The notes under the pieces are model-generated. The model did not search any database. It was not told the origin of the DNA and saw nothing but the letters and a program-made list of their open reading frames with translations. From assembly GCA_963796685.1 (NCBI GenBank), contig CAWCMR010000025.1, positions 896,001 to 960,000 of the forward strand: a stretch of 64,000 bases of DNA. The letters run 5' to 3'. The DNA is from an uncultured delta proteobacterium (lineage in GTDB: Bacteria; Myxococcota_A; Polyangia; Fen-1088). The position numbers and the translations under genes are program-made. Of the stretch, positions 23,331 through 61,254 are shown in pieces; within the stretch, counting starts at the first letter, position 1; every line of letters begins with the position of its first letter.

Positions 23331-23337
23331 GGACCGC

Positions 23338-42873: not shown

Positions 42874-43013
42874 GCGATCTCCTTCCAGGTGCGGTAGCCG
42901 CACGCAGTCTACCTCATCTCGCCGGGACACACCGACGCCCTTGTTCCCATCCCCCGGCCGTGTTATCAGCGTGGATTCGATTCCTCCCCATGCGGGGCTC
43001 TGAAAGGGCGACC

Positions 43014-44081
43014 ATGAAATCGTACAACATCGCGCTGATTCCTGGAGACGGCACCGGACCCGAGGTTCTTGCCGAGGGCGTGAAGGTCATCGACGCGGCT
43101 TGCGCCAAGCACGGCGTGAAGCTGAATTACACCAGCTTCGATTTCGGCGGCGAGCGCTACAAGCGTACCGGCGAGATCCTGCCCGACAGCGCGCTCGAAG
43201 AGTTCAAGAAGTTCGATGCCATGTTCCTCGGCGCCATCGGTCACCCCGACGTCAAGCCCGGCATCCTCGAGGTCGGCATCCTGCTCAAGACCCGCTTCGC
43301 CCTCGACCAGTACATCAACCTGCGCCCGGTCAAGCTGTACCCCAACGTCGAGACGCCCCTCAAGGACAAGGGCCCCGAGCACATCGACTTCGTGGTCGTG
43401 CGCGAAAACACCGGCGGCATCTACACCGGCATCGGCGGCGTCACCCACAAGGGCACCCCGCTGGAGAACACCGTCCAGGTCATGACCTACTCGCGCCCCG
43501 TGGTCGAGCGCTGCGTGAAGTACGCCTACGAGCTGACCCGCAAGCGCAACAGCAAGAAGAAGATGCTGACCCTCGTCCACAAGTGCAACGTCCTGACCCA
43601 CGCCGGCGACTTGTGGGTGCGCGTGCACAAGGAGATCGGCGACAAGCTCTATCCCGAGATCAAGCAGGACTACAACCACGTCGACGCCTGCACCATGTGG
43701 TTCGTCAAGCAGCCCGAGTACTACGACGTCATCGTCACCGAAAACCTCTTCGGCGACATCATCACCGACCTCGCCGCCATCATCCAAGGCGGCCTCGGCA
43801 TCGCCGCCGGCGGCAACATCAATCCCGAGGGCGTCTCCATGTTCGAGCCCATGGGCGGCAGCGCCCCCAAGTACACCGGCAAGAACGTCATCAACCCGCT
43901 CGCCACCATCTGCGCCGGCGGCATGATGATGGACACCCTCGGCGAGCCCGCCATCGCCAAGGCCGTCGACCAAGCCGTCCACGACGCCCTGGCCTCGGGC
44001 AAGATCAAGAGCCTCTCCGCCGGCAAGATGGGCATGGGCACCCGCGAGGTCGGGGATTTCATCGCCAAGCTGGTGAGCTAG
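43014..44081 (+). CDS. leuB: 3-isopropylmalate dehydrogenase
   Basis: 'PGDGTGPEV', 'NLRPVK', 'VRENT', 'NLFGDIITD', 'MFEPMGGSAP'. Substrate specificity within the ICDH/IPMDH family is inferred. Confidence 0.88.
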   Translation: MKSYNIALIPGDGTGPEVLAEGVKVIDAACAKHGVKLNYTSFDFGGERYKRTGEILPDSALEEFKKFDAMFLGAIGHPDVKPGILEVGILLKTRFALDQYINLRPVKLYPNVETPLKDKGPEHIDFVVVRENTGGIYTGIGGVTHKGTPLENTVQVMTYSRPVVERCVKYAYELTRKRNSKKKMLTLVHKCNVLTHAGDLWVRVHKEIGDKLYPEIKQDYNHVDACTMWFVKQPEYYDVIVTENLFGDIITDLAAIIQGGLGIAAGGNINPEGVSMFEPMGGSAPKYTGKNVINPLATICAGGMMMDTLGEPAIAKAVDQAVHDALASGKIKSLSAGKMGMGTREVGDFIAKLVS

Positions 44082-44214: not shown

Positions 44215-46485
44215 TCAGAACGCAAGCCGGACTCTGTTCTTCACCTGCAGGTCTTGTGTTAGCCAGCCGGACGTTTGCATCTGGGTCACGATTTCGTCGT
44301 AGACGGGTGCGGTTCCCTCTGGGTCAGCGATCGTGATAATGAGCGCCATCCGCTGCGGATTCCTGGTCTGGAAGCCACTTCGATGCTGCAGGGAAATATG
44401 GAGCCTCCACGTGTCGCCTTGGATCCCTCTCTTGATCGATCTCCGGTAGACCTTTACGGGCGACCACTTGAATCCGTGCTCGAGTAAGTGATGTTCAAAG
44501 AGCATGTTCACGTCTTCCGGCTCCGGCGGTATCTGCCGCTTATGGTGGCGCTTGCCATCCTTACCGAGATCGTAGGTCCCGAGCGAGACCTCGACATTGG
44601 ACCGACAGTATTCAGCGCCGGCAGCACCTTCGCAGGGTGGGTCATACGCGAGGGTCATCGAGAACTCTCCGCGAACCTTGCCCTTCTTGTCCCGCAGGCT
44701 CGCCGGAATGGGAAACCCTACCTTCTCGAACTCAAGACCTGAAAGCAGGTCGGGTTCGAAGATGAGGGTGGCGGCGGATCTCACGCACGAGAGGACTTCG
44801 GCGACGCCACCAGGCACGCCGAAACCGCGATACTTCATGTCGACCGCAGTCAGCGTACCCTTGGACACCAGTGCGGAATGGATCAGGAGCGCCTTGACCA
44901 GATTCGGCGAAGGTGCGGCTCTTCCGGTTAGTTCGGCGTCGACGGTCGCGTACAGGGACGTCACCAGCGGCGTTGCGAAGCTTGTCCCGATGCTCTCGGC
45001 TACATCGCCGTTCGCATCGAGTGAGAGAACGCCGGTCTGCACACAGCCGAGTCCCGCATCGCAATTCCCGCCATAGTGGGACAGATCCGGTTTTGGCAGG
45101 TACACCGGACCTGGGCCGCGGCGGGAAAAGGGAGACGGTTCCCCGGATCGTACCTTGGAATTCGGGCGGTCGATGTGTGCGACCGAAGCAACGGTGATGG
45201 CGTGAACCGAATCGGCGGGAGCGCAAATGCGGTCGGCCTCTCCGAGATCCTCCGCAGGCCACCCTCGGAGGGGCGGGGTCACATAGTTTCCCGCGGAGAC
45301 GACAAATCGCACGCCATGCTTCGACTGGATCTCGTCGAGCGCCATCGCGAAGTCCGAAAAGGAGTCGTTCTGGCACAACCCCGCCACGCTGTTCACGGAC
45401 AGGTTCCAAACCCGCACCTGCGGGTACTTCGGCACGACCTCTTCTATGATCGTCAGGAGCTGGTCTTCCGAAATGCCGCCCTTCGGAACGGCCACCACGT
45501 CGACGATCCGACAAGATCCGTCGGGGAAGCCTGGGTCACTCTGATTCAGCAGACGACCATGCACGAGCAGCCCAGCAACGAAACTTCCGTGCTCGAGATC
45601 CTGCTCGGATGGATGCACCTCGATCTCATGCGACACAATCCAAGGTGCAAGGAGAGGATCGTGAGCGTTCACCCCGCTGTCAATCAGCCCAACGACCGGA
45701 TAGTCTCTTCCCGGCTCGGGGGCGGGGAAGTCGGATGTGCGAGCAGCGCGGACCCGAGTAGCCGAAGTACGAACCGATTTGTAGATCGGAAATGTGGAGA
45801 CGCTTTGCGTGCCTACGAACCGGGCAAGCCTTCGGATGGCGTCAGGTCCCGCTGGGCCGATGCGGTAGATACGCAGCCCCTCTGCGTAGCGGACCGGTTC
45901 AGGCGAGGCGAGCTGGAGATCCTCCACTTCGGCAAGGAACGCCTTTTCGATTCTTTCGTCGATAGCAGGACTGCTATGCCGAAAGAGCCTCAGCTTGAGA
46001 GGCGAGGGGGTGCGGACCACACGAGCGGTAAGCTCGTCGACGGTTTCGGGCGCCGTGGCCGTGTCCGCTTCATGAGGCAAGATTTGCGCGATTGTGGAGA
46101 TGTCTGCCTGACCCGCCTTCGTGCTGTCCGCACCTATCCTCGCAATCAGTTCATCGATCCGACCGGGACGAAGGCTGATGAGCAACTCCCCGAGATGACC
46201 AACTCCTATGACTGGGCAGGTGTTGTGGAAAAGCTTGGCGGGACGATGGGATTTCGCCAGCGCCTCCCGTTTGAGGACCACCCGACCGACGGCGGGCAGA
46301 CTTGTCTTGTCGGCTACGTGCAATCGGCTGGCAGCATCAGCCAGTTGTCCCGATAGCCTTGCTCGAACTTCTGAAGTGACGGGTCCGAACATCTTGCGTC
46401 CGCCACCGCCTCCCTCGGGACGGAACCAGTCTTCGTTCCTACTCAGGACGACTTTGATGGGTAGTCTCCGTTCGGTCGTAGGCAT
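44215..46485 (-). CDS. S8 subtilisin-like serine protease, IetS-like
   Basis: Catalytic triad motifs 'LIDSG', 'EHGSFVAG', 'GTSFATP'; oxyanion 'SAGN'; no signal peptide; 3 nt downstream of an AAA ATPase. Confidence 0.9.
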   Translation of the reverse strand: MPTTERRLPIKVVLSRNEDWFRPEGGGGGRKMFGPVTSEVRARLSGQLADAASRLHVADKTSLPAVGRVVLKREALAKSHRPAKLFHNTCPVIGVGHLGELLISLRPGRIDELIARIGADSTKAGQADISTIAQILPHEADTATAPETVDELTARVVRTPSPLKLRLFRHSSPAIDERIEKAFLAEVEDLQLASPEPVRYAEGLRIYRIGPAGPDAIRRLARFVGTQSVSTFPIYKSVRTSATRVRAARTSDFPAPEPGRDYPVVGLIDSGVNAHDPLLAPWIVSHEIEVHPSEQDLEHGSFVAGLLVHGRLLNQSDPGFPDGSCRIVDVVAVPKGGISEDQLLTIIEEVVPKYPQVRVWNLSVNSVAGLCQNDSFSDFAMALDEIQSKHGVRFVVSAGNYVTPPLRGWPAEDLGEADRICAPADSVHAITVASVAHIDRPNSKVRSGEPSPFSRRGPGPVYLPKPDLSHYGGNCDAGLGCVQTGVLSLDANGDVAESIGTSFATPLVTSLYATVDAELTGRAAPSPNLVKALLIHSALVSKGTLTAVDMKYRGFGVPGGVAEVLSCVRSAATLIFEPDLLSGLEFEKVGFPIPASLRDKKGKVRGEFSMTLAYDPPCEGAAGAEYCRSNVEVSLGTYDLGKDGKRHHKRQIPPEPEDVNMLFEHHLLEHGFKWSPVKVYRRSIKRGIQGDTWRLHISLQHRSGFQTRNPQRMALIITIADPEGTAPVYDEIVTQMQTSGWLTQDLQVKNRVRLAF

Positions 46486-46488
46486 TCT

Positions 46489-47625
46489 CTATTCCTCCCG
46501 CAGAAGCTTTGATAGCCGACCCAGGGAAACGCCGAAAACCTCCGATAGACGGCGGTAGGTGAAGAAGTCGGGCGCGAGGCGCCTGGCGGCGGCGACTCTT
46601 GCCTCAAGCGAAACCGAATCCTTCATAAGATCTGGCAATCGATGATTCAAGATCCGGCGAAGCACTTCGGCGGTATCGACGCGAGTCAAGTCGGACAAGA
46701 TCGCACGACGTTTGCTGTCTTCGGCGACCTGTCGGATGTCAGATCCGCTCAGCGTCTCGGAGACGGCCGCAAAGACTCGAATCTCATCGTCCTGTGCGAA
46801 GTCTCCGCAGAAGCGCTGGAACATTGCACGCCGAGCTTCCGGCCCCGGAAGACCGATCTGCAGGCGGAAAGCGAATCTGCGCCAGATCGCCGGATCCAAG
46901 AGGTGTTCGTGGTTGGTGGCCGCCAGAAGAACGGTTTTCGATTCGAGCGCATCGATATTCTGAAGAAGGCTGACCACGACCCGTTTCAGCTCCCCCAACT
47001 CGTTCTTGTCGTCGCGCGCCTTCGCCAGCGCATCGAACTCATCGAGGAACAGTACGCACGGCCGCGCGGTTGCGTGATCGAAAAGAGTGCGGAGGTTCTT
47101 GGCGGTGCTGCCCAGGAAGGAAGAAATCAGTGAGTCCGACCGTGCCGTAAGCAGCGGCAAACCCAGTTGCGACGCCACGTACTTTGCTAGTTCGGTCTTG
47201 CCACAGCCGGGCGGGCCGAAGAGAAGCATCGAAGGTGACACGCCGACACCCTGGCTAACCAGGCGATCGGCCCCGAGGACAAACCGAACGAACTCATGAA
47301 CGGCTGCCGTGACCTCCGGCGCTACGAATACCACCGCGTCTCCCGATGCGAAAAGTTGCTCATCCGCTAGCGCGAGCCGCGACTCCTGATCGACGGGGAT
47401 TCCCGGTGCTGCGATCGAACGGCTGAGCTCAAGCATTCTCGTCTTCGAGCTTTGGAGGGTCCTCTGAAGACGATCGGCGATGGTCTTGTGACCCTCGGCT
47501 GCGAGCTTGGAGGCCAGCAACTCCGTGTAAGATGCCACCTTCTCCCGATCGGCGTTGACCGCACCTTCAACGATCTTGAGCAGTTCGAGAACGTGAGGAA
47601 GCTCCTTATGAACAACTGAAGGCAT
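46489..47625 (-). CDS. AAA+ ATPase, IetA-like
   Basis: Walker A 'GPPGCGKT', Walker B 'LFLDEFD', 'GELKRVVVSLLQ', 'LDPAIWRRF'; start at 47625 is inferred. Confidence 0.9.
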   Translation of the reverse strand: MPSVVHKELPHVLELLKIVEGAVNADREKVASYTELLASKLAAEGHKTIADRLQRTLQSSKTRMLELSRSIAAPGIPVDQESRLALADEQLFASGDAVVFVAPEVTAAVHEFVRFVLGADRLVSQGVGVSPSMLLFGPPGCGKTELAKYVASQLGLPLLTARSDSLISSFLGSTAKNLRTLFDHATARPCVLFLDEFDALAKARDDKNELGELKRVVVSLLQNIDALESKTVLLAATNHEHLLDPAIWRRFAFRLQIGLPGPEARRAMFQRFCGDFAQDDEIRVFAAVSETLSGSDIRQVAEDSKRRAILSDLTRVDTAEVLRRILNHRLPDLMKDSVSLEARVAAARRLAPDFFTYRRLSEVFGVSLGRLSKLLREE

Positions 47626-47748
47626 GATGTGAACATTATGCCTATGTACGTGAACGCTATCAAGATATCGTGAACGAATGCCGCACAGCTGAGCCTCCAC
47701 GCGTCGTGAAAGTCGAGAACCCGAGCGCGTCGACCCTCGTCGTTCGAG

Positions 47749-47959
47749 GCCGATCCCTTCGGCCGGGGTGAGCGAGCGATTTGGTGACGCCGACCGATCC
47801 GTTCGCTCACCCTGACCGATAGGTTCGGTTGCATTTACCGATAGGTTCGTTCGTCCCGACCGATCGGTTCGCCCACCCCGACCGATCGGTTCGGTGCCGC
47901 TAACCGATGGTTTCGGTGGCGCCAACCGCTCGATTCGGTCCTGGGAACCTATCCTCAAG
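47749..47959. repeat. Iteron-like array with exact 22-bp period, core ACCGAT(C/A)GGTTCG
   Basis: Cores start at 47793, 47815, 47837, 47859, 47881, 47903 and 47925; degenerate in-phase units at 47749, 47771 and 47947. Confidence 0.85.
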
Positions 47960-48069
47960 GTCACCGTCACCGGTCCCAGTGCTTGCCCCACTCCGAAGGT
48001 CGACCCAGGGTGATCGATCCACATCGCCCTGGGGACCTCGTGCGAGGCACCTGCGGTTTGACTGTCCGG

Positions 48070-48552
48070 CTATCTCGCCGCAGCTGCCTGGGGCGCGGGG
48101 GCCGGGGCGGGGGGCCTCGGGCCGCGCGCGAAGAAGTCGAGCAGCGGCTTGAACATGACCAGGATTTCCGGGTCGTGCTTGCCCTGCGCCTTCACCTGAT
48201 CGTTGGTCTTGCGAATCTGTTCCCACGCCTCGGCGTCGAAGAGCAGATTGGCTTGCTTGAGCTTGTTCAAGACGACGTCGAGATCGAGGATCACCTGGTC
48301 GATACCCTCGGCGCGTTTCCCCAAGGCTCGCAGCGACGCCGGCGTTACGCCAGCCGCCGGTGCGAACCTTGCGCCCGACTTCTCGATCGCGTCGGCCGTC
48401 GCATCACAGATGAGCCCAATTCCCCGCGGCGTCTTGGCGATGCGACGAACCTCATCGGGGCTCATATTTCCAGCCTCGGGTGGCGGCGCGAATTCGTCCG
48501 CAATTGAAACCGTTACTGTTCCATGTCGAAGATCAACCATTGGTCCCTCCAT
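48070..48552 (-). CDS. Hypothetical helical protein (160 aa)
   Basis: Clean ORF with genome-like codon usage, divergent from the methyltransferase gene. Confidence 0.7.
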   Translation of the reverse strand: MEGPMVDLRHGTVTVSIADEFAPPPEAGNMSPDEVRRIAKTPRGIGLICDATADAIEKSGARFAPAAGVTPASLRALGKRAEGIDQVILDLDVVLNKLKQANLLFDAEAWEQIRKTNDQVKAQGKHDPEILVMFKPLLDFFARGPRPPAPAPAPQAAAAR

Positions 48553-48656: not shown

Positions 48657-51600
48657 ATGCCCGCCGAGGTTCGTCTGTCGCCAAAGGATCGCCGTACTGT
48701 CCTTGAGCAGCTTTCGCGAGAGCGCCTCGGCGAGCTGAGCACGCGCTTCGAGCTGGACGTCGCGGACCGTCGGTCGACCGACTCTCACATTGATGCGATC
48801 GTGCGCAAGCGCTCGCTGGACTTCCGCGCCGTCCTGGAAGTTCTGCGGCGCGAGGAGCTGCAGGCCGCCTGCGAGGCGCTGGGGCTTGACCGGGGCGGGC
48901 GGGAGAAGGCCGCGCTGATTGGGCGGATTCTCGGCGAAGGGGCCGCGCCAACGGAGGCGACGCCTTCCCCGTCGAGCAGCGAGCCTTCGCCAGTCAGCGC
49001 GCAGAACGAGCGAGGGTTGAAGTCGGCGCTGCGCCGGTTCGTGCTCGACCTGGCCGGTGGGCTGCGCGGGCGGGACGCTGCCACGACGTTCACCTCGCGC
49101 TTGCTTCGCTGCTTCGGCTGGCCCGAGGGGGCACCGCCCGAGGTCACCCTACCGACGTCGCTCGCGGTGGTGGAGAATGGACGGCGCTCGACGCGCGAGG
49201 TGGCGCTGTTCTGGAAGGACCGGCGCGTCCTGGTCGAGGTGGTCAAGCACGACGTGATGCTCGACTTTGCCTGGAAGGACTTGCTGCGCGTCTGCCTGCA
49301 GGTCGATCCGGTGCCCGCAGTATGTGGTGCTGACCAACCAGCGCGACCTCCAGCTCTATGACCTGGGCCGCGACCGCGAGGAGCCCAGGCTTTCGATCGC
49401 GCTCGAAGATCTGCCCAAGTACAGCGAGGCCTTTCCGTTCCTCTCGCCCACCTGGCACCCCGGAACCACGCCGAGGATCATCAACGTCTCGAAGGTGTCG
49501 CGCGAGGTCGCCGAGCTGGTCGCGCGCCTGTACCGCAGCCTGAAAGAGCAGCACCCCAAGCAAGAGCGCGAGGTCGTGCAGTTCACGCTCCAGTGCATCC
49601 TGACCATGTTCGCCGAGGACATTCGCCTGCTGCCCCAGGAGTACTTCACCTCGCTGCTTTACGATGGCGCGCGCAGCGGCGACGTCGAGAAGCGGTTGCG
49701 CGACCTGTTCCGGCTGATGGGCACGCGCGACGTGCCCGGCCAGCGCGCGGTGCCCTTCTTCAACGGGGGGCTGTTCACGCGTCCCGTGACCCTCCCGCTC
49801 GGCGAGGCGCAGCTGGCGGCGCTGATCAAGGCCTCGGAGGCCAACTGGACCTACGTCGACCCGCACATCTTCGGCAGCGTCTTCCAGGGCATCATGAGCG
49901 ACGCCGAACGCCACCAGAGCGGCGCGCACTACACCGCCCACGAGGACATCATGCGCGTGGTGGGGCCCACCATCGTCGAGCCGTGGCGCCAGCGCATTCG
50001 CGAGGCCAAGTCGCTCGAGCCGAGCTGCTGGAGGTGCGCACGGCTCTGCTCAAGTTTCGCGTGCTGGACCCCGCGTGCGGCAGCGGCAACTTCCTGTACG
50101 TTGCCTTCCGCGAGCTGTACCGCCTGGACACCGAGCTGCTGGCCCGCATCCGCGAGTTCCCGTCCACCCAGGCCGAGGGCCGGGCGAAGGTGACCTGGGG
50201 AGTGGGGATCCAGACCATCGAACTTCTTCGGCATCGACATCAACCCCTTCGCCGTCGAGCTGGCCAAGGTGACGCTGAACATCGCGAAGAAGATCGCCTT
50301 CGACGAGCGCAGCGAGCTGGCGGCGCGATCTCGTCGGCCAGATGGAGATGGACGTCGATCCGTCGCTGCCGCTCGACAACCTCGACAAGAACATCGTCTG
50401 CGCGGACGCGCTGTTCACGGACTGGCCGGAGGTGGAGGCGATTGTCGGCAATCCGCCGAATCCTGGGAGACCGTAAAATTCGTGGCGAGCTAGGCGCGGA
50501 CTACATTCGCCGGCTTCAGGAGACGTCGGGATTGGATGGCGTCGTCGATCTCTCTTGCTACTGGTTTCGCCGTGCGCACGATCGCCTGCCAGACGGGCGC
50601 CAGGGCGGGGCTCGTCGGCACCAGTGGAATCCGCGTAGGGAAGGCGCGCGAGGCCTCGCTCGACTACATCGTCGCAAACAGCGGTACCATCACGAATGCG
50701 GTGTCATCGCGCCCCTGGCCCGGTGAGGCCGCCCTCGACGTCTCGATGGTCAACTGGGTGAATGGATTCGCCGATGGTCCGCATCAGCTCATCATCGAGG
50801 ACGAGGTCTTCCTGGTCGCGCGCATTCCAACGCATCTTCAGCTCCACGCCGACGTCAGCGGGACCAGGGACCTTGCGGCCAATGTCACCGGTGCAATGGT
50901 CGGCATAACATTTGCGACCGATGAGTTCACGATCCCACCCACGTCGGATCTTCTTCGTAACGGGGACTTGAAAAGGCGTGGTGTGGTGAAGCCCCTCGCG
51001 ACGGGTGGTGGCATGCTCAAAGGCAGCCTCGCGGTCAACCCGGAATACGTCGTTTACCTTGGCGCTTGCAAGACACAGCCCGAAGCCGCGCAGGTCGGTG
51101 GCCCTGCATATGCCTATCTCGACAAACACCTGCGGCCACACGTGCTGTCAGTGGCTGGGCAGTATGAAGGATGGGATGCACGCTGGTGGCAGCCTTGGCG
51201 TCCACGCCCAGAATTCCTCAGCGTTGCGTCGAAGCTGAATCGGCTGATCATGTGTTCCAAGGTGCTTGGCCGCCCTGTCTTTGCTTTTCTGTCTTCCACG
51301 TTCGCGCCAAACGATACGATGCAAGTCTTTGCCTTCGACGACGACTACAGCTTCGGCATCGTTCAGTCATCGTTGCATTGGGAGTGGATCAAGGCTAAGG
51401 GCGGCAAGGTTCGGGCCGACAAGCGCTACACCAATGAGGTCTGGACTACCTTTCCCTGGCCACAGGAGCCAACCGAAGCCGAAGTCGCGGCCATCGCCAC
51501 CGCCGCGCGAAACCTTCGCCGGGCCCGCGACACGCTCATGAAGGAAAACTCCTGGTCACTGCGCGCGCTCTATCAAGCCGCCGAGATCCCTGGCCCGCAT

Positions 51601-51822
51601 CCGCTCAAGGACGCGCAAGCAGCTCTCGATGAAGCCGTTCAGCGGGCCTACGGGATGCCGGCAGACCAGGAGGCGACGGCGTTCCTGCTCGAGCTGAACC
51701 AGCTCGTGGCCGAGGACGAGGCGGAGGGCAGGAAGGTCCAAGGCCCCGGGGTGCCGAAGGGGCTCGATGCGCGCGACCCGCGCTGGACCAGCGACGATTG
51801 CATCGAGCCGCCCGGCTCGTGA
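48657..51822 (+). CDS. MmeI-like (Type IIL/IIG) DNA methyltransferase with TRD; several apparent frameshifts; nuclease motif degenerate
   Basis: 'PFFNGGLF', 'DPHIFGSVFQ', 'GAHYT', motif I 'VLDPACGSGNFL', 'FGIDINP', motif IV 'IVGNPP', C-terminal 'FGIVQSSLH...TFPWP'. Pieces lie in ORFs starting 48480, 49267, 49593, 50269 and 50536. Confidence 0.85.
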
Positions 51823-51832
51823 CGGGAGAAAC

Positions 51833-54800
51833 GTGGCCGAGTCAATCGATGTCCATCCGCTGCTGAGCAAGCTTTGGGACGACAAGAGGAACGGCGCCGC
51901 GGCGGCTGTCCAGGTGCGGAGCTTCCGCCCTGCGTGGTGGCGTTGCGAGCACGGGCATTCGTTCCAGCGCTCGCCGCGCAGCATGCTGAGCGACCCTGCA
52001 TGCCCGGGCTGCCAGCGCGGTCCGGGCACAAGCTCGATCGCCAAGGCGCGACCCGGCCTGGTGCCGCTGTGGCATGCCGAAAAGAACGGAAGCCTGTCGC
52101 CCAGCACCACCGATGTGGCATGCGCGCGGGGCCATCTGGTGGCGCTGCCCGCAGGGGCACGAGTTCCAGCGCTCGCCCCTGCTGATGTTGCGGGATGCAA
52201 GCTGCGCCGTCTGCACGGTCGCCACGACATCCCTGGCGGTGACCAACCCCGCCGTGGCGGCCGAGTGGCACCCGTCCCAGCAACGGCGAGGTCACGCCCG
52301 ACCAGGTTGCCCGCCGACCACGTCATGAACGCCTGGTGGCTGTGCCCCAAGGGCCACGAGTATCAGGCGACTGTCCGGTCGCGCGCCCGGGGCAACCGTA
52401 GCTGCCCGACCTGCTACGGCGGCTGGTCGCTTGAGAACCTCCGAGCCTTCGTCAAGTCGCTCGCTTTCGCATGCCGGCGCGTTCAACCCGAGCGAGCGAT
52501 TCGCCCTGGCGATGCAAGCGGGCGTGTTCGCGGACAAGGACTCGCGCCCCTTCGTCATGGCCATCTCCACGGGGCGCTTCCCGCGCGAGGAGCTGGAGAA
52601 GTTCGCCGAGGGCAAGCCGTCCCTGGTCGATGAATTTGCCGCTGACAAGGCGCTGACCCTCGAAATCGTCGACGGGCGGCAGCCCGCGAAAACCGCCACG
52701 CCGGTCGATCCCTACGCCCTGCCGGCAGCGCCCGAGCCCCTCGACGAAGGTGAGCGCGTCGATGTGGACGTCAGCCGCGAGGTTGACTCTGCGGCCGTCG
52801 CCACCGCCGCAGCGCGGCGCCGATGATGACATGCCGCTGGTCAAGACAGCGGACGCGCTCGGCGGCGCTCGACAGCGTCCTGGTGGCCAACGCCGATGCC
52901 GAGACGGTGAAGTTCCTGCTCGACAGCGCGAAGGCCAAGCTGTGGCGTCACGCCTACGTCGATGCCAAGGAGGCCCGCGAGCAAGCCGCTGGCTTCAAGG
53001 GCGACGTCTATTCGGGCCTCGTGCGCGACAGGTTTCTTGCCGAGTTCGACGAGGCCGACGCGCTGGCGCCGCCCGCGGGCTATGCCTTCCGTCCCACGCC
53101 CGACGCCCCGGTGACGCCACCGAATCTGATGCAGCGGCGGGTGGCGGTGTGCGTGCGCGCCGAACGCCGGTTCGGCAACTGGTCCGGGATGGGGGCGGGC
53201 AAGACCCTCAGCGCCATCATCGGCACGCGCGTCGTCGATGCCAGGCTGACGGTGATCTGCTGTCCCAATGCCGTGGTCGACAACTGGGAGCGCGAGATTG
53301 CGGGGGCATTTCCCGCCTCGGACGTGGCCAAGAAGACCTGGCACCCCGAGTGGAAGGATCCGCTCGGGACCACGCCGCGCTACCTGGTGCTCAACTACGA
53401 GCAGTTCCAGCAACCCAACTCAGAGGCGGAGCTGGTCGGGTTTCTCGATCGCAACGTCATCGACTTCGTCGTCGTCGACGAGATCCACTTCGCCAAGCAG
53501 CGCGAGGCCGGCGCGGAGATGTGCAAGCGCAAGCGACTGGTGCAGGGTCTTATCCTGGAGGCGGGCAAGAAGAACGGCGGATCTGTGCGTGCTCGGGATG
53601 TCGGGAACGCCGGTCATCAACACCCTGCAAGAGGGCAAGAGCCTGGTCGAGATGATCACCGGCCATCGCCACGACGATCTGGAAACGCGTGCCACGGTTC
53701 AGAACTGCATGCGGCTCTATCAGCGCCTGGTCACGCTCGGGACGCGCTGGAAGCCCGACTACAAGATCCAGCTCGACGGTCGACAAGAAGGAGATCGACT
53801 GCGAGCACGCCCTGGACGAGATCCGGGTCGTGGGTCGGGGGACGGTGCTTGAGCTAGAGCAGGTGCTGACCCGGCTGCGCCTACCGACCATCCTCGCGAA
53901 CCTTTCGCCCGGCGAGAAGGTCGTCATCTACACCCACTACGTGGACGGCATCGCGGGCACGCTGCGCGACGCGCATCCACACCGCAGGCTATCGTGTCGG
54001 GCATGCTGACCGGCGGGACCGACGACGTCGATCTCAAGGAGTTCCTGAAGCCCGACGGCAACATTGATGTCCTCATCGCCTCGAGTCGCATCGGCACGGG
54101 CGTCAACGGCCTGCAATACGTCTGCAACAAGCTGATCATCAACTCGCTGCCGTGGACGAACGCCGAGTACGAGCAGCTCATCGGGCGGCTGTACCGGCAG
54201 GGCAGCCGCTTTGACCAGGTGCGGGTCATCATCCCGGTGACCTTCGCGATGGTGAACGGTGAACGCTGGTCCTACTGCGAGTCGCAAGCTGCACCGGCTC
54301 GAGTACAAGAAATCGATCGCCGACGCCGCCGTCGACGGGGTCGTGCCCGAGGGCAACCTGCGCACGCCCGCGCAGGCGCAGCAGGACATCATGGATTGGC
54401 TGGCGCGGCTGGAGAGCGGCAAGATGAGCCGAGGTCGCAGCGGCCGGTCATCAAGATCCCGCTCTCGGGCGAGCCCAACGAAGTCGAGCGGCGGGTCGCG
54501 CGCTACGGCGACTTCTCGAAGATGAACAACCGTTGGTACGCGTCGGGCAGCGAGTCGACCCACGCCAGGCTGGCCAGCAACCCCGAGGAGTGGGCCCACT
54601 ACCACACGATGTACCGGCAGATTCGAGAGTCCTGGCCTGTGGTGCCCTACAAGGAGGAGATCCGCTGGCTGTCCGAGCGGGAGGGGCACGTCATCGGCGA
54701 CTTCGGGTGTGGCGAGGCGCTGATCGCGCGAAGCCGGCCAAAGACCGCCATCAGGTCCACAGCTTCGACCACGTGGCGGTGGGCGGCAGCGTGGTCGCCT

Positions 54801-55112
54801 GCGACATCGCGCACGTGCCGCTCGAAGACGAGCTCCCTGGACGTCGCGATCTTTTGCCTCTCGCTCATGGGCGCGAACTTCACGGACTACGTGCGCGAGG
54901 CGCATCGCTGCCTTCGCCTCGACGGCTGGCTACACATCTGGGAGCCTGCCAGCTACTTCGACGACGTCACGAAGTTCTGCTCGCAGCTCGGTCGCCTGGG
55001 CTTCGACGTGGTGGAACCGCAGACCGAGGGTGCCTTTGTCCGGATCTACGCTGCGCGGAATGCCAAGAAGGTGGATCCGACAATCGTCCTGCCATTCCGA
55101 GGGCATGGTTAG
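51833..55112 (+). CDS. Fusion of 3 Zn-ribbons (DUF4379-like), SF2/SNF2-type helicase and Rrp8/NML-like methyltransferase; about ten or more apparent frameshifts
   Basis: GTG at 51833 after GGGAG. Zn-ribbons WWRCEHGH..CPGC, WWRCPQGH..CAVC, WWLCPKGH..CPTC; helicase 'GMGAGKT', 'DEIH', 'SGT', 'QLIGRLYRQG'; MTase 'IGDFGCGEA', 'HSFDH', 'CDIAHVPLEDE', 'DVAIFCLSLMG'. Confidence 0.82.
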
Positions 55113-55309: not shown

Positions 55310-55453
55310 GTCGGGATCTATCGGCAAAGCCCCTGCGATTGTTGCTTGGAATCGAAGATTGATGCCCGCCAGCCGCCCAGGTGATCACCTACTCGCGCCC
55401 CGTCATCGAATCGCGTGGGGAGCCGCCGAGCTTCGCTCGGCGCGTACCGTCGT

Positions 55454-55604
55454 GGGAAGGTTTGGAAACCCTCCCAGTTCCGCCACCGGGCCGAAGGCCC
55501 GGATCCTTCAGTCATGAAACGTGGCAGCCCCTCACCCGCCTCGCTGCGCTCGGCGACCTCTCCCCGCTTCGCGGGGCGAGGTGGTTTCAGGTCAGGGTTT
55601 CCAT
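55454..55604. repeat. ~150-bp palindromic module, second copy of 33323-33483
   Basis: Shared GG(G/A)TTTGG(G/A)AACCCTCC, CCGGGCC(C/G)AAGGCCCGGATCCTTC, GCCCCTCACC..CCTCTCCCCGC..GCGGGGCGAGGTGGTTTCAGGTCAGGGTT. Confidence 0.88.
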
Positions 55605-55613
55605 CTCCATGTC

Positions 55614-56182
55614 GCGTGAAGTACGCCTACGAGCTGACCCGCAAGCGCAACAGCAAGAAGAAGATGCTGACCCTCGTCCACAAGTGCAACGTCCTGACCC
55701 ACGCCGGCGACTTGTGGGTGCGCGTGCACAAGGAGATCGGCGACAAGCTCTATCCCGAGATCAAGCAGGACTACAACCACGTCGACGCCTGCACCATGTG
55801 GTTCGTCAAGCAGCCCGAGTACTACGACGTCATCGTCACCGAGAACCTCTTCGGCGACATCATCACCGACCTCGCCGCCATCATCCAAGGCGGCCTTGGC
55901 ATCGCCGCCGGCGGCAACATCAACCCCGAAGGCGTCTCCATGTTCGAGCCCATGGGCGGCAGCGCCCCCAAGTACACCGGCAAGAACGTCATCAACCCGC
56001 TCGCCACCATCTGCGCCGGCGGCATGATGATGGACACCCTCGGCGAGCCCGCCATCGCCAAGGCCGTCGACCAAGCCGTCCACGACGCCCTCGCCTCAGG
56101 CAAAATCAAGAGCCTCTCCGCCGGCAAGATGGGCATGGGCACCCGCGAGGTCGGGGACATGATCGCGAAGTTGGTGAGTTAG
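55614..56182 (+). pseudogene. leuB: Displaced 3' half of leuB (att-like direct repeat)
   Basis: 569 bp colinear with 43513-44081; about 13 substitutions, all synonymous except one F->M codon; no start codon. Confidence 0.95.
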
Positions 56183-56809: not shown

Positions 56810-57691
56810 CTAGGCGGTGGTCAGGCGCCACAGCTCGGCCAGGCGCTCGGGCGCGGTGGCCGCGCGGATGATCGCCGGGCCGCCCGTCATCTGGTACTCG
56901 CGCAGGTCGACGATGCGGGCGTAGTCCGAGTGGGCGTCCACCTGGAACTTGCGTTCGCGCAAGACTTGCTGTGCCTCGTGCGCGAGCGCGTGCCCGCAGC
57001 CGCCGTCACGGGCGAGGTAGAGGCAAGTCCATAACGCCATGCGGTTGGTCGTCCAGCCCATGGATTCCGGGTGGCGCCCCCACGAGACAAGCAAGATGCG
57101 CGACATGTCGTGCGGGTCGTAGAGCGCCCAGCAGACGTTGGCGATGAACGCGAGGTCCTCGCCGGTCGACAAGGAAAGCGTGCCGAGCAGTCGGCGCTGC
57201 AGATGGTCCTCCCACCAGCGCGACGCGAATCCTGTCGCCCCTCGCTTGAGGGTAAGCCCGAGCTGATGGGCCACCGCCACGAGCCCAGCATCGATGAGCC
57301 GGCGCTCGCGACGGAAGAAGCGGAAGACGAGGGCGACGAGACCGATGAAGCCGCCGACCTGCGCGATGAGGTTCCACGGCCGGTAATGCCGGGACAGCAT
57401 CCAATGGCTCCACGGCGATCGCTTGGGCCAGCTCAGCGCCCAATGTCCGCTGCTCACGCCGTAGGCGGTCCACTCCAGCCCCACCCAGAGCACGATGAAG
57501 ATGATGACGGCGTAGATGAACGCCGACTGGACCTCGAAGGCGCCCTCCACCACGCTGCCGACCGCCGACAGCCAGGACGGCATGCGCTTGACGGGATGGC
57601 GCCTGACGTGGACCACCCACGCGGTGAAGGCGATAGCGAAGCCCACCATGATGAGCACGCCGACAAGGAGCTGGATCTGGCTGCTGGTCAT
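56810..57691 (-). CDS. Hypothetical 3-TM membrane protein
   Basis: Hydrophobic segments; ATGA overlap with the upstream gene. Confidence 0.7.
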   Translation of the reverse strand: MTSSQIQLLVGVLIMVGFAIAFTAWVVHVRRHPVKRMPSWLSAVGSVVEGAFEVQSAFIYAVIIFIVLWVGLEWTAYGVSSGHWALSWPKRSPWSHWMLSRHYRPWNLIAQVGGFIGLVALVFRFFRRERRLIDAGLVAVAHQLGLTLKRGATGFASRWWEDHLQRRLLGTLSLSTGEDLAFIANVCWALYDPHDMSRILLVSWGRHPESMGWTTNRMALWTCLYLARDGGCGHALAHEAQQVLRERKFQVDAHSDYARIVDLREYQMTGGPAIIRAATAPERLAELWRLTTA

Positions 57692-58257
57692 GGGTCTTCG
57701 TTGGCGGGGGGAACCACGCCGTCCACCGCGAGACTCGCATCCCCGGTTTGGTCGCGTCGCGGAACCAGCGACGGCATGATGGTCGAGACGAGCTCGGCGG
57801 CCAGCTCGCGCTGCATCCAGGGCGGGACCTGGTCCGGGTTGTCGCAGTTGAGGCGAATCTGCTCGCCCATGAGACGTACCCGATCGTTGGCTTCGATCTT
57901 CACGTCACCGCTTCGCGCCTCGATGCTCGTCGCTGCGCCGACCAGGCGCACCTCCTCGGTGGCCTTGACCTCGAAGCTCTGACATTGCACGGCGAGCTGC
58001 TTGGGCGTGACGATCTGGATGTCGGCACTCTCGAACACCAGCTTGGGGCCGGCTTCGGTGAGAATGACGGTCAACTCCGCCTTCCCACTAGGGCTGACGA
58101 TGTCGATTCGCTCCTGACCCAGCGACAGGGAAAGCCGCACGGTCCGTCCGCTGCGGGGCGCGGTCAACGCCGAGCTGCTTGCGGCCATCGGCAGCGATCC
58201 CGTCGCGCTCACCGCCCTGCCCTTGTCATCTTCACCGTCTGCCAAGGCTCCTCCCAT
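57688..58257 (-). CDS. Hypothetical protein with VgrG/gp5-like beta repeats
   Basis: 'FEVKATEEVRLVG...IEARSGDVKIEANDRVRLMGEQIRLNC'; lies in the DUF2169 operon. Confidence 0.6.
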   Translation of the reverse strand: MGGALADGEDDKGRAVSATGSLPMAASSSALTAPRSGRTVRLSLSLGQERIDIVSPSGKAELTVILTEAGPKLVFESADIQIVTPKQLAVQCQSFEVKATEEVRLVGAATSIEARSGDVKIEANDRVRLMGEQIRLNCDNPDQVPPWMQRELAAELVSTIMPSLVPRRDQTGDASLAVDGVVPPANEDP

Positions 58258-58951
58258 CTATCCCGGCCACCGCACGGAATGCCGGACCTTCTCTTGCTGG
58301 GCTTCCGTCAGCGGACGGTCGGCCGCCCAGGTACCCGACCACAGCATGACCAGGCGGCTCTCGTCGGTGTTGACGAGGACGGTCTTGAGCGCCGGCTCGA
58401 GCTCCTTCGCGGCGCCGTAGGTTTTTGAGGAAGGGCACGAGCGGATCGGGATGGGTCTCTTCCGCCCAGATGTCCCGGCCGCCGTAGGCGCGATCGTAGG
58501 TCAGATCCATCGAGACGAACGGCTCGGGAGCGGTGAAACGAAGCTGCCCGTTGGCGAGGAGCTCGACCATGCGGTCGCCGATCACGCGGATCCGGCAAGC
58601 GCGCTTGCGCGCATCCTCGGCGGTGGTGATGGCGGTCAGGACCGCGACGCTGACCTCGGTCATGGGGCGCGGGCCGCCCGTCACGTAGGCCTTGCCCTGC
58701 ACGACGACGTCGGTGCCCGGCTTGCCGTTGCACATGAGGTCCGATTCGGCGCGCGGGGGCGCGCCGCCCCCCTGCCCCTTCTTGTCGTAGTAGAGCTCGT
58801 CGAACTGGAGCGGAACCTGCATCGACGCAATCTTGCAGTAGCCGGTGGGCAGGATGTCGTAGGTGCGCTTGGCCAGGATGTGAAGGACGTCGGCACCGGC
58901 GCCGTCATCGGTCCCGACCAGCATCGAAAGTAAGGGCTCTAGCTCGGCCAT
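58258..58951 (-). pseudogene. DUF2169 family protein, internally deleted and frameshifted
   Basis: 'AKRTYDI', 'ESDL...KPGTDVVVQGKAY', 'RVIGDR', 'YDRAYGG', then a jump at ~58422 to the C-terminal frame 'LKTVLVNTDESRLVMLWSG...RWPG*'. Confidence 0.72.
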
Positions 58952-58960
58952 CGTAGATTC

Positions 58961-60052
58961 CTACTCCGAACGAGACGCGCCGCCGCCACGGGGTGGGGTC
59001 GACCCGCTGCTGCCTCGTGGTTCGGCGTTCCCCTTTCCACCCTCCCCGCCCTCTCCTTCCCCGCCTTCACCCTCTTCACCTTCCTCGCCAAACTTCTCTT
59101 CGACCCAGTCGGTCCCCTTCTCGCCGCCCTCACCGGCCAGATCCACCGCCGGTTCCGTCAAGGGCGACGCCAGCTTCTCGATTCCCCGGTCGACGCCCTT
59201 GGCCGCAAGCCGCTCGACGCTCTTTTCGACCTGATGCTCGACGATGTCTTCCACCTTCTTCTCGACCTGCTTCGACATCTCCATCCCGACTTCGTTCGCC
59301 AGGCGATCCTCGACCGCATGGAGCGCCTTCTCCGTCAGTTTCTGCGTCAGACGACGGGTCAGCGGCTTGAGCGCCACACTGAGGATCTTCTCGGCGAGCT
59401 TCTCGAGCTTCTCCTTGGCCCACTTGAAACCGGGCACGTATTTGAAGAGGGACTCGAGCAGCTTGGACGCGACGGCATCGGCGATCGCGGCGACCAGGTT
59501 GCCGATGATGGCGGCGAACGTCATGCCCGCGAAGACCGTGCTCGGGACCTGGACGTTGAAGACGTTCGGCAGGATCTGAACACCCTTGACGTTCATCTTG
59601 GGCATGGGCTCGGAGCACATCGAGAAATTCGCGGCACCGACGCACATGCCTGGCGCGATGAAGAGGACCGCCGGGTTGGCGGCACCGTCCGGGAACTCCG
59701 CCTTGATCGAATACGGTCCCCAGACCGCCTTGGCTTGCCCGAATCCGATGACGATCGCCATCAGCCCGAGGTCGAGCGGCGGCGGCACCGCCGAGGGCAA
59801 GGGCGGCAGTCCCGTGGAAAGATGCGGGCGCAGGAACTTGCTGTCGTGGCCGCGCTTGATCAAGTTCCCGGTATGCGCGCTCACCGAAGGCGAGGGCTGG
59901 TCACCCAAGGGGATGTAGATGGGGCCGATCGAGATGCAGATCTCGTTGGGATTGGGCGCCGGCACTCCGAGGGGAGTCAGCCCGAGACAGATGTGCTTCT
60001 CCGTGCCCATGATCAGGCACAGTGGCTTCATCAACTGACATGGAATGGGCAT
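58961..60052 (-). CDS. Hypothetical protein, possible PAAR-like N-terminus plus helical and acidic C-terminus
   Basis: His/Cys/Pro-rich N-terminus ('EKHICLG', 'RGHDSKFLRPH'), amphipathic helices, E/G-rich tail; lies between two DUF2169 genes. Confidence 0.55.
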   Translation of the reverse strand: MPIPCQLMKPLCLIMGTEKHICLGLTPLGVPAPNPNEICISIGPIYIPLGDQPSPSVSAHTGNLIKRGHDSKFLRPHLSTGLPPLPSAVPPPLDLGLMAIVIGFGQAKAVWGPYSIKAEFPDGAANPAVLFIAPGMCVGAANFSMCSEPMPKMNVKGVQILPNVFNVQVPSTVFAGMTFAAIIGNLVAAIADAVASKLLESLFKYVPGFKWAKEKLEKLAEKILSVALKPLTRRLTQKLTEKALHAVEDRLANEVGMEMSKQVEKKVEDIVEHQVEKSVERLAAKGVDRGIEKLASPLTEPAVDLAGEGGEKGTDWVEEKFGEEGEEGEGGEGEGGEGGKGNAEPRGSSGSTPPRGGGASRSE

Positions 60053-60069
60053 GCTGAACGTCCTGGTCG

Positions 60070-61053
60070 TTACACGGCGGCAAGCTCGAGCACGGCCGAG
60101 CGCTTCTCCTTCGGCCGCAGTCCGTATTTGAAGCGTGCAATCCAAGTCATGACCACCAGCCGTTTGGGTACAATCACCCAGAGCCCGGCCACCTTCATCG
60201 GATACGTCCCACGACGACGGCCGACCTGGGTGCGGACGCTGGCCACGAGCGACGGCACCCGGAAGCGGAACGACTCGACGCCCAGGTCGATCTGCACCGG
60301 GTCGCCGGGCCTGATCTCCGGCAGCAGCAAGGGTGGCGGGGCGGCCGACTGGTGGACCTCGCGGCTCTTCTGACTGATCTCCTTCTCGTCGAGGGGCTGG
60401 CGCGAGCTGCGTGTCCGTTCGGCCACCCACTCGGCCAGTTGCCAGGCCTGGGCGTTGGTGACCGGGCCCCAGGTGGCGATGGGGGGCTGGTCGTTCCACT
60501 TGCGGATCAACCAGTCGGGCCGTTCCAGGTTGGGCAGCGGCTGCTCGGCGGCTTGCGCAGCCGAGAGATAGAAACCTTTGCCGGCGGGGTTCAAGGGATG
60601 CGGAAAGGCCATGCCCTCGTAGTCCGCGGTTCCCCCGAACGAGCGGGCAAGGCCGAGATCGAGCTCGCCGAGCAGCGCGGGTTGGCTGGCCACGAGCTCG
60701 TTGCCGCGCTTGACCCACCGACGGTCGCCGAAGACGAGCATGCGGTTCGTGAAGGATCCGACGGACAGCCTGACCTCGAGGTGGGGCACGGGCCGGCGGG
60801 ATTTCGCCGTTCCCACCACGACCAGCTCGGCCTGCGGGCGCAGTGGGTAGTCGTCCGCAGGAAACCGCCCCACCTCCGTCGTGAGGGCCTCGCCAAAGAC
60901 GGGCCATTGCTCCGCATGCAGCGGCAGCTCGCCCTGGTTCCCGTCGAGCAGAGCGTAAGTCTTGCGCGCCACCACCCACCCGCCGTTCAGGTCTTCGTGC
61001 AGGGCTCCGGTGAACAGCCGGGCCTGCAGGTCCGTATGGTTGGCAAGCTTCAT
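60070..61053 (-). CDS. DUF2169 family (T6SS adaptor) protein
   Basis: 'MKLANHT', 'VVARKTY', 'VFGDRRW', 'RSFGG', 'NPAGKGF', 'LPNLE', 'LVVMTW'. Confidence 0.85.
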   Translation of the reverse strand: MKLANHTDLQARLFTGALHEDLNGGWVVARKTYALLDGNQGELPLHAEQWPVFGEALTTEVGRFPADDYPLRPQAELVVVGTAKSRRPVPHLEVRLSVGSFTNRMLVFGDRRWVKRGNELVASQPALLGELDLGLARSFGGTADYEGMAFPHPLNPAGKGFYLSAAQAAEQPLPNLERPDWLIRKWNDQPPIATWGPVTNAQAWQLAEWVAERTRSSRQPLDEKEISQKSREVHQSAAPPPLLLPEIRPGDPVQIDLGVESFRFRVPSLVASVRTQVGRRRGTYPMKVAGLWVIVPKRLVVMTWIARFKYGLRPKEKRSAVLELAAV

Positions 61054-61254
61054 GCCGCCGTGCCTTTGCCGGCAGACGACCGCGTGGCACTCGGGAGGAG
61101 GGTTAGGACAGACTTCATCTTGGTGTTGCGCTAAGCGAGAAGGTTAGCCCGATGTTGCCGCAGCCTCGCTGCTTTGCCAAGGCGATTCCCCTGGAGCTGC
61201 CCGGCTTCCGTCCGGCCATGATCGCAGGTTGTGTCGCACCATGGTGGTGCTCGT

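Follow-up and report, generated by a model that had tools for sequence, protein, structure and literature searches.

The stretch of DNA analyzed here (hereafter, the window) is a 64,000-nucleotide part of contig CAWCMR010000025.1 from an uncultured delta proteobacterium. It contains two adjacent genes: gene 1, which encodes a nuclease-less homolog of the DNA methyltransferase MmeI, and gene 2, which encodes a fusion of three zinc ribbons, a Snf2-like ATPase, and a methyltransferase domain resembling eukaryotic Rrp8. Sequence comparisons suggest that gene 2 derives from a widespread stand-alone protein that was recruited once into an operon with gene 1 and has been kept there in at least 16 loci, including the window. 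We lean slightly toward the interpretation that the pair is a restriction-modification (RM)-like two-gene module, probably intact in the cell, whose output is methyl transfer, and that the many frameshifts in its deposited sequence are assembly errors. The pair is conserved in soil myxobacteria, and its role in defense is plausible.

Both genes lie on the forward strand. Gene 1 runs from the ATG at 48657 to the TGA at 51820-51822, and gene 2 runs from the GTG at 51833 to 55112; the spacer of 10 nucleotides agrees with the original prediction, made from the sequence of the window, of two co-oriented genes 10 nucleotides apart. The GTG is preceded by the ribosome-binding site GGGAGA. Coordinates of all features are given in Table 1.

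Gene 1 is an MmeI homolog that appears to have lost the cutting motif

Four frame pieces of gene 1 carry the Pfam domains MmeI_N, MmeI_hel, MmeI_Mtase, MmeI_TRD, and MmeI_C (E-values of 1e-12, 4.4e-11, and 8e-04 for MmeI_hel, MmeI_TRD, and MmeI_C, respectively). A helical spacer, a target recognition domain (TRD), and a C-terminal domain are therefore combined in one polypeptide, as in the MmeI family, and the gene also matches the PADLOC model REase_MTase_IIG (PDLC03599). The MmeI architecture named in the original prediction is thus borne out. The SAP-like motif at the N-terminus scores below the curated Pfam cutoff in the window and above it in the intact gene 1 ortholog of locus L110 (E = 1.2e-05).

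The closest relative of gene 1, protein P0122, matches MmeI (PDB 5HR4) with an E-value of 3.7e-42. At the PD-ExK nuclease motif, Asp70 of MmeI is replaced by Ala, Glu80 is retained, and Lys82 is replaced by Val, with a Lys one residue further on; the sequence of the window in this region is the same as that of P0122. Both replacements are found throughout the family: among 60 members, 57 have Ala at the Asp70 position and 55 have Val at the Lys82 position. In active MmeI enzymes these catalytic residues are completely conserved, and mutating them abolishes cutting (Morgan et al. 2009, PMC2731913). The suggestion that gene 1 is nuclease-dead therefore extends to a whole subfamily without the catalytic Asp70 and Lys82 of MmeI, which, as judged by sequence, has lost the cutting motif. 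Because the PADLOC type IIG model matches gene 1, standard tools would probably label it alone as a complete type IIG RM enzyme despite this loss.

Identity between the window and P0122, measured in 50-residue blocks, is 84-98% over residues 1-700 and 82-90% in the C-terminus, and it falls to 32-60% in the recognition domain. This profile is that of specificity turnover and resembles what is seen in RM and BREX enzymes that switch specificity.

Gene 2 combines zinc ribbons, a Snf2-like ATPase, and an Rrp8-like methyltransferase

In gene 2, Pfam detects DUF4379 zinc fingers, ResIII/Helicase_C, and Methyltransf_8, the last with an E-value of 1.9e-31 in the window and 6.5e-46 in an intact ortholog. 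The AlphaFold2 model of the L110 ortholog (predicted local distance difference test score, 80.6) consists, from the N- to the C-terminus, of three zinc ribbons, a helical domain, a disordered linker, two RecA lobes, and the methyltransferase. The original prediction had reconstructed a protein of about 1090 amino acids (aa) with three ribbons, ATPase motifs I, II, III, and VI, and a C-terminal methyltransferase, and Pfam, alignment, and Foldseek agree with it on all of these points. Its assignment to superfamily 2 (SF2) helicases holds as far as the motifs go and can be refined by fold to a Snf2-like ATPase: the protein has the two RecA lobes, the four motifs, and a Snf2-type fold, and the top Foldseek matches of the ortholog's ATPase are all Snf2-family remodelers (E-values down to 3.6e-16; target-normalized TM-score [TMt] of 0.62-0.66 for Ino80). 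The Pfam SNF2-rel match of gene 2 in the window is weak (E = 0.0076). Snf2 enzymes are double-stranded-DNA translocases, and the fold thus points to a function of this kind for gene 2.

The methyltransferase domain of the ortholog aligns across its whole fold with human RRP8/nucleomethylin (PDB 2ZFU; E = 1.5e-33, TMt of 0.84, root mean square deviation of 2.5 Å), and the motifs of the S-adenosylmethionine (SAM) site are conserved, as expected of a class I fold of the Rrp8/Methyltransf_8 type. Rrp8 is a stand-alone eukaryotic enzyme that forms N1-methyladenosine (m1A) in ribosomal RNA (rRNA), whereas the bacterial domain is joined to a Snf2 motor and zinc ribbons. The DUF4379 ribbons match mt-SAF33, a mitoribosome assembly factor.

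No PADLOC model matches gene 2 above its cutoff, the only matches being weak ones to DrmD and HmaA on the helicase C-lobe, and no NCBIfam model scores near its cutoff. As far as PADLOC goes, the lack of matches that was proposed as support for novelty is found for gene 2, but not for gene 1 with its type IIG match. A complex prediction with residues 1-430 of a gene 2 ortholog and residues 1-390 of a gene 1 ortholog, a guessed choice of domains, gave a score of 0.00.

Table 1. Features of the gene pair and of the island that contains it (window coordinates)
Feature	Position	Strand	Remarks
Gene 1: SAP + MmeI-family (type IIL/IIG-like) N6-adenine DNA methyltransferase with TRD	48657..51822	+	~1053 codons, 6 frameshifts
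SAP-like DNA-binding motif, gene 1 N-terminus	48843..48929	+	Pfam SAP E 0.0062, below curated cutoff
Degenerate PD-ExK region of gene 1	49203..49253	+	phmmer alignment of P0122 to MmeI 5HR4
Methyltransferase motif I, DPACGSGNF	50067..50093	+	invariant, 60/60 homologs
Methyltransferase motif IV, NPP-I	50444..50472	+	one-base insertion at 50458 breaks motif
Hypervariable target recognition domain, residues ~701-900	50760..51360	+	identity to P0122; Pfam MmeI_TRD
Gene 2: three DUF4379 ribbons + helical domain + Snf2-like ATPase + Rrp8-like (Methyltransf_8) domain	51833..55112	+	~1090 codons
Three DUF4379 treble-clef zinc ribbons	51935..52420	+	WW-x-C-x2-GH at 51935, 52137, 52334; Pfam, alignment
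Snf2-like SF2 ATPase core	53140..54290	+	Pfam, alignment, motif coordinates
ATPase motif I, GMGAGKT	53186-53206	+	
ATPase motif II, VDEIH	53474-53488	+	
ATPase motif III, MSGTP	53598-53612	+	
ATPase motif VI, GRLYRQG	54183-54203	+	
Rrp8-like class I methyltransferase domain	54480..55112	+	DFGCGE 54699, SFDH 54761, FCLSLMG 54852
IetS, intact defense-pair member	44215-46485	-	PADLOC E 4.6e-254, near full-length profile coverage
IetA, intact defense-pair member	46489-48024	-	PADLOC E 3.7e-132, near full-length profile coverage
Full-length Iso_dh (isopropylmalate-dehydrogenase-like, leuB-like) gene	42795-44078		Pfam Iso_dh positions 1-346 of 348
Left bounding repeat copy	43471..44078	+	repeat search, families D1 + D5; within full-length Iso_dh gene
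Right bounding repeat copy = Iso_dh 3' fragment	55373..56182	+	repeat search; Pfam Iso_dh 167-348 of 348

The pair is a lineage-specific operon

A survey from the side of gene 1, with P0122 as the query, yielded 19 genome loci. Fifteen of these have at least 54% identity to the query, and all of the records among them that carry a taxon name are myxobacterial. Three of the 15 are too short downstream, which leaves 12 informative loci, and in 9 of them the fusion lies directly downstream of gene 1: eight carry an intact same-strand fusion of 996-1136 aa (stop-to-stop frames), and in the ninth (L112) the fusion is split in two pieces beside an interrupted gene 1. Two loci (L098 and L101) retain remnants of gene 2, and one (L102) has no fusion within 2.3 kb. 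None of the four distant MmeI-like genes (30-35% identity) has a fusion as a neighbor. On metagenome contigs, the fusion lies beside gene 1 in all five relatives at 60-72% identity; seven distant relatives have no fusion neighbor, and two further contigs end inside gene 1. The distance from the gene 1 stop to the gene 2 start is 4-24 nucleotides in 12 of 15 cases, which correspond to 11 of 14 distinct loci because L053 and L104 represent one Sorangium locus.

The fusions paired with MmeI homologs form one clade (support of 1.0), and the gene 2 family at large mostly occurs solo. These two facts together point to a single recruitment of the fusion into the operon. Seen from the side of gene 2, the family comprises at least 1,649 proteins at E ≤ 1e-10 among 8,000 scored candidates (its Atlas cluster has 1,498 members) and is patchily distributed, with 176 matching stretches in 185,579 species genomes from many phyla. 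Its core is 50-65% identical across phyla, and its N-termini are variable. The family was found on 3 of 72,556 plasmids, in 3 IMG/VR contigs, and in none of 50,697 phage genomes. The pair thus draws attention to a large, uncharacterized family that joins a Snf2 motor to an Rrp8-type methyltransferase. As to the original expectation that homologs of the two genes co-occur, it holds when viewed from gene 1 (9/12 genome and 5/5 metagenome loci) and fails when viewed from gene 2, where 78 of the 80 loci kept from the 176 matches have no partner.

The flanks of the pair vary among 17 related loci, whose 85 neighboring open reading frames (ORFs) include three resolvases and two recombinases. A conserved third gene was considered and rejected, as the largest Pfam tally among these neighbors is 3.

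Individual loci show several other arrangements. The pair of L112 (7959-17872) has been naturally disrupted: two insertions, of about 1.3 and 1.6 kb, interrupt its MmeI-like gene. In L098 (11201-16303), gene 2 is truncated past the three zinc ribbons, and the genes that come next encode ThiF (E1-like), JAB, and a large serine recombinase, which gives the impression that another mobile cassette of the defense type has inserted into the partner gene. On the Sorangium chromosome, an Ada-AlkA fusion (an alkylation-damage regulator and a glycosylase) lies directly downstream of the pair (L104 14627-16615); this single case may be a coincidence and would be of interest only if the effector methylates DNA. 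A metagenome homolog of gene 1 (L119) appears as two ORF pieces in the same frame, 2-916 and 920-2311, which indicates an in-frame stop codon between them, at 917-919.

The frameshifts in the pair are very probably assembly errors

The frameshifts reported in the original prediction are real features of the deposited sequence. By frameshift-aware protein-to-DNA alignment with intact relatives, gene 1 changes frame 6 times relative to P0122 (1060 aa, residues 1-1060 aligned), at approximately 49314, 50016-19, 50217, 50325, 50458, and 50592, and gene 2 changes frame 14-15 times (15 relative to the L110 ortholog, at 83% identity). Neither path contains a stop codon, over a total of approximately 2,140 codons. 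At the DNA level, the comparison was made with L121, the closest DNA relative compared (85.8% identity; the metagenome scan did not return P0122's own contig). All events there add a single base, except for three insertions of 2 bases and a deletion of 5; adding the event at 49314 brings the total to 20 in 5.5 kb, 19 of them insertions. Homopolymers were rejected as the cause: the indels are not set in long homopolymer runs, and the pair and the neighboring IetAS genes do not differ in homopolymer content.

Apart from these events, the coding sequence is well preserved. At sites invariant in the other paired orthologs, gene 2 has 2 mismatches in 469 (12 intact orthologs have 1-23 in 468-490), and gene 1 has 2 in 341 (25 intact homologs have 1-10 in 340-349). 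A further comparison covered 88 columns that hardly vary among 68 members of the family in other phyla: the window differs at 9 of them, at 8 together with its clade, and intact clade members differ at 6-10. The branch of the window, next to L121 on the tree, is short.

A first scan of the genome for the density of frame switches, based on GC content at third codon positions (GC3), placed its maximum at the pair, and the other top regions checked proved to be operons of short, intact genes (type VI secretion system [T6SS] and isc). A refined scan revealed one other characterized patch of like kind, in a type I hsdR gene on contig C15 of the same genome (G000:C15 ~206,100-208,700; L133 6141-9375, minus strand), which has nine frameshifts, all +1, and no stops. 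A protein search matched it to an intact metagenome protein that is 94% identical over 1106 residues; a class-level search of 120 other genomes found no relatives at E ≤ 1e-20. The YgjP-like gene adjoining hsdR is whole. In three regions of contig C11 (~228-233, 284-292, and 305-312 kb), the GC3 frame signal is chaotic on either strand and long ORFs are few; here, too, the sequence may be of low quality, or it may just be unusual.

We consider it very probable that the breaks are local assembly errors; the pair is probably intact in the living cell. The scarcity of mismatches at conserved sites, the clade-shared nature of the differences in the 88 columns, and the short branch all argue for this, as does the insertional signature that the pair shares with the unrelated hsdR, in which the coding sequence is otherwise preserved. 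The poor consensus would be explained if the patch was built from noisy long reads. On the other hand, the cluster of about 20 frame-breaking indels in 5.5 kb is sharply local: the adjoining IetAS genes (3.8 kb) have none, 10 of 10 genes are whole in two other regions of the genome, and 10 other ORFs in the window have complete domains, barring a possible split at 23326-24222 / 24125-25630. The indels also fall outside long homopolymers. In addition, natural decay of the pair does occur, as the insertions in L112 demonstrate, and L098 and L101 carry truncated versions as well; the other dense cluster is again in a restriction gene, and selection against restriction activity could yield such a pattern. 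These observations would fit the view that both genes are true pseudogenes, the remains of a decayed system that a large number of small insertions inactivated. We regard this as improbable, because the count of substitutions at conserved sites (4/810 in total) falls near the bottom of the range seen in intact orthologs, there are no stops, and the branch of the window is short. Bacterial mutation is biased toward deletion, whereas insertions prevail here by 19 to 1 in the pair and by 9 to 0 in hsdR, and hsdR is 94% identical to an intact protein over its full length. Moreover, a gene is already inactivated by a single frameshift, and neutral decay does not look like twenty more of them with no substitutions alongside. 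Automatic annotation of the assembly would make both genes pseudogenes, most likely wrongly.

Relationship to known systems

MmeI homologs that lack the nuclease and have helicase partners were noted in 2009 (PMC2731913); the pair is thus a variant of this class and not a wholly new kind of system. In this respect, the original statement that the pair is not a named system was right in that we found no published description of it and incomplete in that the class is known. Neither the pair nor the fusion family was found described in a defense context in a full-text literature search that excluded the supplements of the papers cited here. The closest known representative is the DnmA(YeeA)-YeeB-YeeC cluster, in which MmeI homologs without the endonuclease motif have a helicase and a GIY-YIG/T5orf172 protein as their neighbors (PMC2731913; PMC9973331). 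Both have an MmeI-family methyltransferase/TRD protein without PD-ExK and an SF2 helicase gene immediately downstream (the gene 2 helicase being a candidate counterpart of YeeB), and, like the pair, the YeeA cluster is described as conserved in horizontally acquired regions. Unlike in that cluster, the helicase of gene 2 is fused to three DUF4379 ribbons and an Rrp8-like domain, and gene 1 has a SAP motif. No YeeC-type GIY-YIG/T5orf172 protein was found among the island ORFs or in the 25 Pfam families that recur most often in the 85 neighbors; here, a methyltransferase stands in the nuclease's place. The clade has thus swapped the expected nuclease for a second methyltransferase, one with close similarity to the Rrp8 of eukaryotes, in a class that is still mechanistically unexplained.

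Compared with MmeI itself (type IIL, PDB 5HR4), gene 1 has the same order of N-domain, helical spacer, gamma-class N6-adenine methyltransferase, TRD, and C-domain, but differs in the replaced Asp70 and Lys82, the extra SAP motif, and an obligate-looking partner gene; where the nuclease motif is present, MmeI enzymes lack conserved neighbors (PMC2731913). As in class 1 DISARM (DrmMI + DrmD + DrmABC), an adenine methyltransferase is combined with a Snf2-like helicase, and partial PADLOC/NCBIfam matches were obtained to DrmMI (E = 4.8e-44, in the TRD part) and DrmD (E = 4e-06 to 7e-09, on the helicase C-lobe). However, the matches are far under the family cutoffs (34.5 bits versus 610 for DrmD), DrmD has no methyltransferase domain, and DrmA, DrmB (DUF1998), and DrmC are absent from the island, which sets the pair apart from DISARM class 1. 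The PglX protein of BREX is also an MmeI-related site-specific N6-adenine methyltransferase; it marks self in a system without a known nuclease. Matches to it are weak (E = 1e-06 to 7e-10, far under cutoffs), and no PglZ, BrxC, or BrxL genes are present in the island. With its two genes, the pair is well suited for studying how a system based on methylation can exclude DNA without any cutting, a question that is likewise open for BREX.

Possible mechanism and alternative explanations

In the interpretation that we favor, gene 1 would recognize a short asymmetric DNA site and methylate the host copies, by analogy with the MmeI family, and its altered N-domain could serve as the docking point for gene 2, a role that Morgan et al. 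suggested in the case of the YeeA group. Gene 2 would be translationally coupled to gene 1. At unmarked sites on incoming DNA, gene 1 would engage gene 2, which would move along that DNA as an ATP-driven translocase, and the output would be methyl transfer by the Rrp8-type domain, with no cut. The target of methylation might be DNA, as the Snf2 fold would have it, or rRNA, as the relatives of the methyltransferase and the zinc ribbons would have it. The repeat-bounded 12.1-kb island with intact IetAS, the differing flanks, and the resolvases and recombinases among the neighbors together place the pair in a mobile, defense-type setting.

A more specific form of this scheme is non-cutting restriction: N6-methyladenine marks self, unmarked DNA loads the Snf2 motor, and the Rrp8-type domain writes m1A-type groups. 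The base-pair-blocking methyl group would be placed on invader DNA during unwinding or on rRNA as an abortive-infection switch. We consider this form speculative and unlikely. If it were true, an invader would be stopped by enzymatic chemical damage without cleavage, and the stand-alone zinc-ribbon/Snf2/Rrp8 proteins of more than 10 phyla would be single-gene versions of the same effector.

Several observations weigh against an RM-like module. Motif IV of gene 1 is NPPI instead of the family consensus NPPF, both in the window and in P0122 (among 60 homologs, NPPF in 56 and NPPI in 3, including P0122), so DNA methylation by this gene 1 is not certain. The family of gene 2 does not need an MmeI partner, given that 78 of 80 loci lack one (the exceptions are L052 and L053), which makes the pairing lineage-specific; nor do the loci share any other neighbor, the largest cluster among 1,475 neighboring ORFs being present in 5 of the 80. 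The sole characterized relatives of two gene 2 domains, Rrp8 and mt-SAF33, act on rRNA, which favors an RNA target even though the fold is that of a DNA motor. Finally, ordinary housekeeping genes are also among the neighbors of the pair, and the homologous dnmA-yeeB-yeeC cluster gave no phage protection in B. subtilis, as reported in PMC9973331.

Some of these observations could be accounted for by other functions. The pair might be a non-immune module for epigenetic control or chromosome maintenance, an orphan methyltransferase with a Snf2 remodeler, akin to the orphan regulator DnmA. For a defense gene, gene 2 has an unusually conserved core, since identities of 50-65% across phyla are atypical of such fast-evolving genes, and HSP70, GrpE, and HrcA genes flank some of the pair loci. 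Furthermore, the dnmA-yeeB-yeeC cluster showed neither a phage nor a transformation phenotype in B. subtilis, and DnmA alters gene expression there (PMC9973331). The recognition domain of gene 1, however, is hypervariable between close relatives, the module is found at differing genomic places, in islands, and beside recombinases, and the distribution of gene 2 is patchy (176 stretches in 185,579 species genomes), so that we think this explanation rather unlikely. The RRP8 match (E = 1.5e-33, with conserved SAM-site motifs), the match of DUF4379 to mt-SAF33, and the mostly solo occurrence of the family would be expected if gene 2 were an RNA-directed m1A methyltransferase of rRNA or transfer RNA, active in ribosome biogenesis or as an abortive-infection toxin, with gene 1 as a sensor or passenger. 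Yet its ATPase fold matches the Snf2 family and not DEAD-box RNA helicases, its tight operon with a DNA-site-recognizing enzyme in 16 loci argues for a DNA-linked role in this clade, and its patchy, mobile distribution argues against housekeeping; we therefore hold an RNA-directed function to be quite improbable. Least of all do we expect gene 2 to be a counter-defense or establishment factor of mobile elements that shields incoming DNA in the manner of DarB, a methyltransferase-helicase that protects incoming DNA. Members of the family do occur on three plasmids and in three IMG/VR contigs, and the nearest Atlas architecture clusters are helicase + N6-methyltransferase fusions with viral members. 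But none was found in the 50,697 phage genomes and just three among the 72,556 plasmids, the methyltransferase is of the Rrp8 type and not of the DNA N6-adenine type, and a self-marking MmeI-like partner fits defense better, all of which makes such a role very improbable.

Genomic context

The pair lies in an island bracketed by a direct repeat (43513-43812 versus 55614-55913; 99% identity over 300 nucleotides, spacing of 12,101) that belongs to an Iso_dh gene, full length on the left and a 3' fragment on the right. The earlier description of a leuB-bounded island beside an IetAS-like pair is thus correct. The adjacent IetS and IetA genes are intact, with the Pfam domains Peptidase_S8 (a subtilase-like protease) and AAA ATPase that define IetAS; they (44215-48024) are context of the gene pair and lie outside the pair itself. 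Besides IetAS and the pair, the 12.1-kb island contains only a 160-aa ORF between IetA and gene 1 (48070-48552, minus strand), which has no match in Pfam, NCBIfam, or PADLOC and no relative among the fetched loci. No integrase was seen inside the island. The GC content is approximately 60% in IetAS and 66-69% in the gene pair, a difference that suggests a mosaic origin of the island. In a same-genus synteny comparison, the contigs of both relatives stop within or near the Iso_dh gene.

Elsewhere in the window, overlapping ORFs at 23326-25630 encode a response regulator-PAS protein followed by a PAS-HisKA-HATPase-receiver protein, which are either one frameshift-split hybrid kinase or two genes. 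To the right of the island are DUF2169-containing ORFs (56810-61143, minus strand), and a T6SS cluster is located elsewhere in the genome, on contig C15 at ~54-60 kb.

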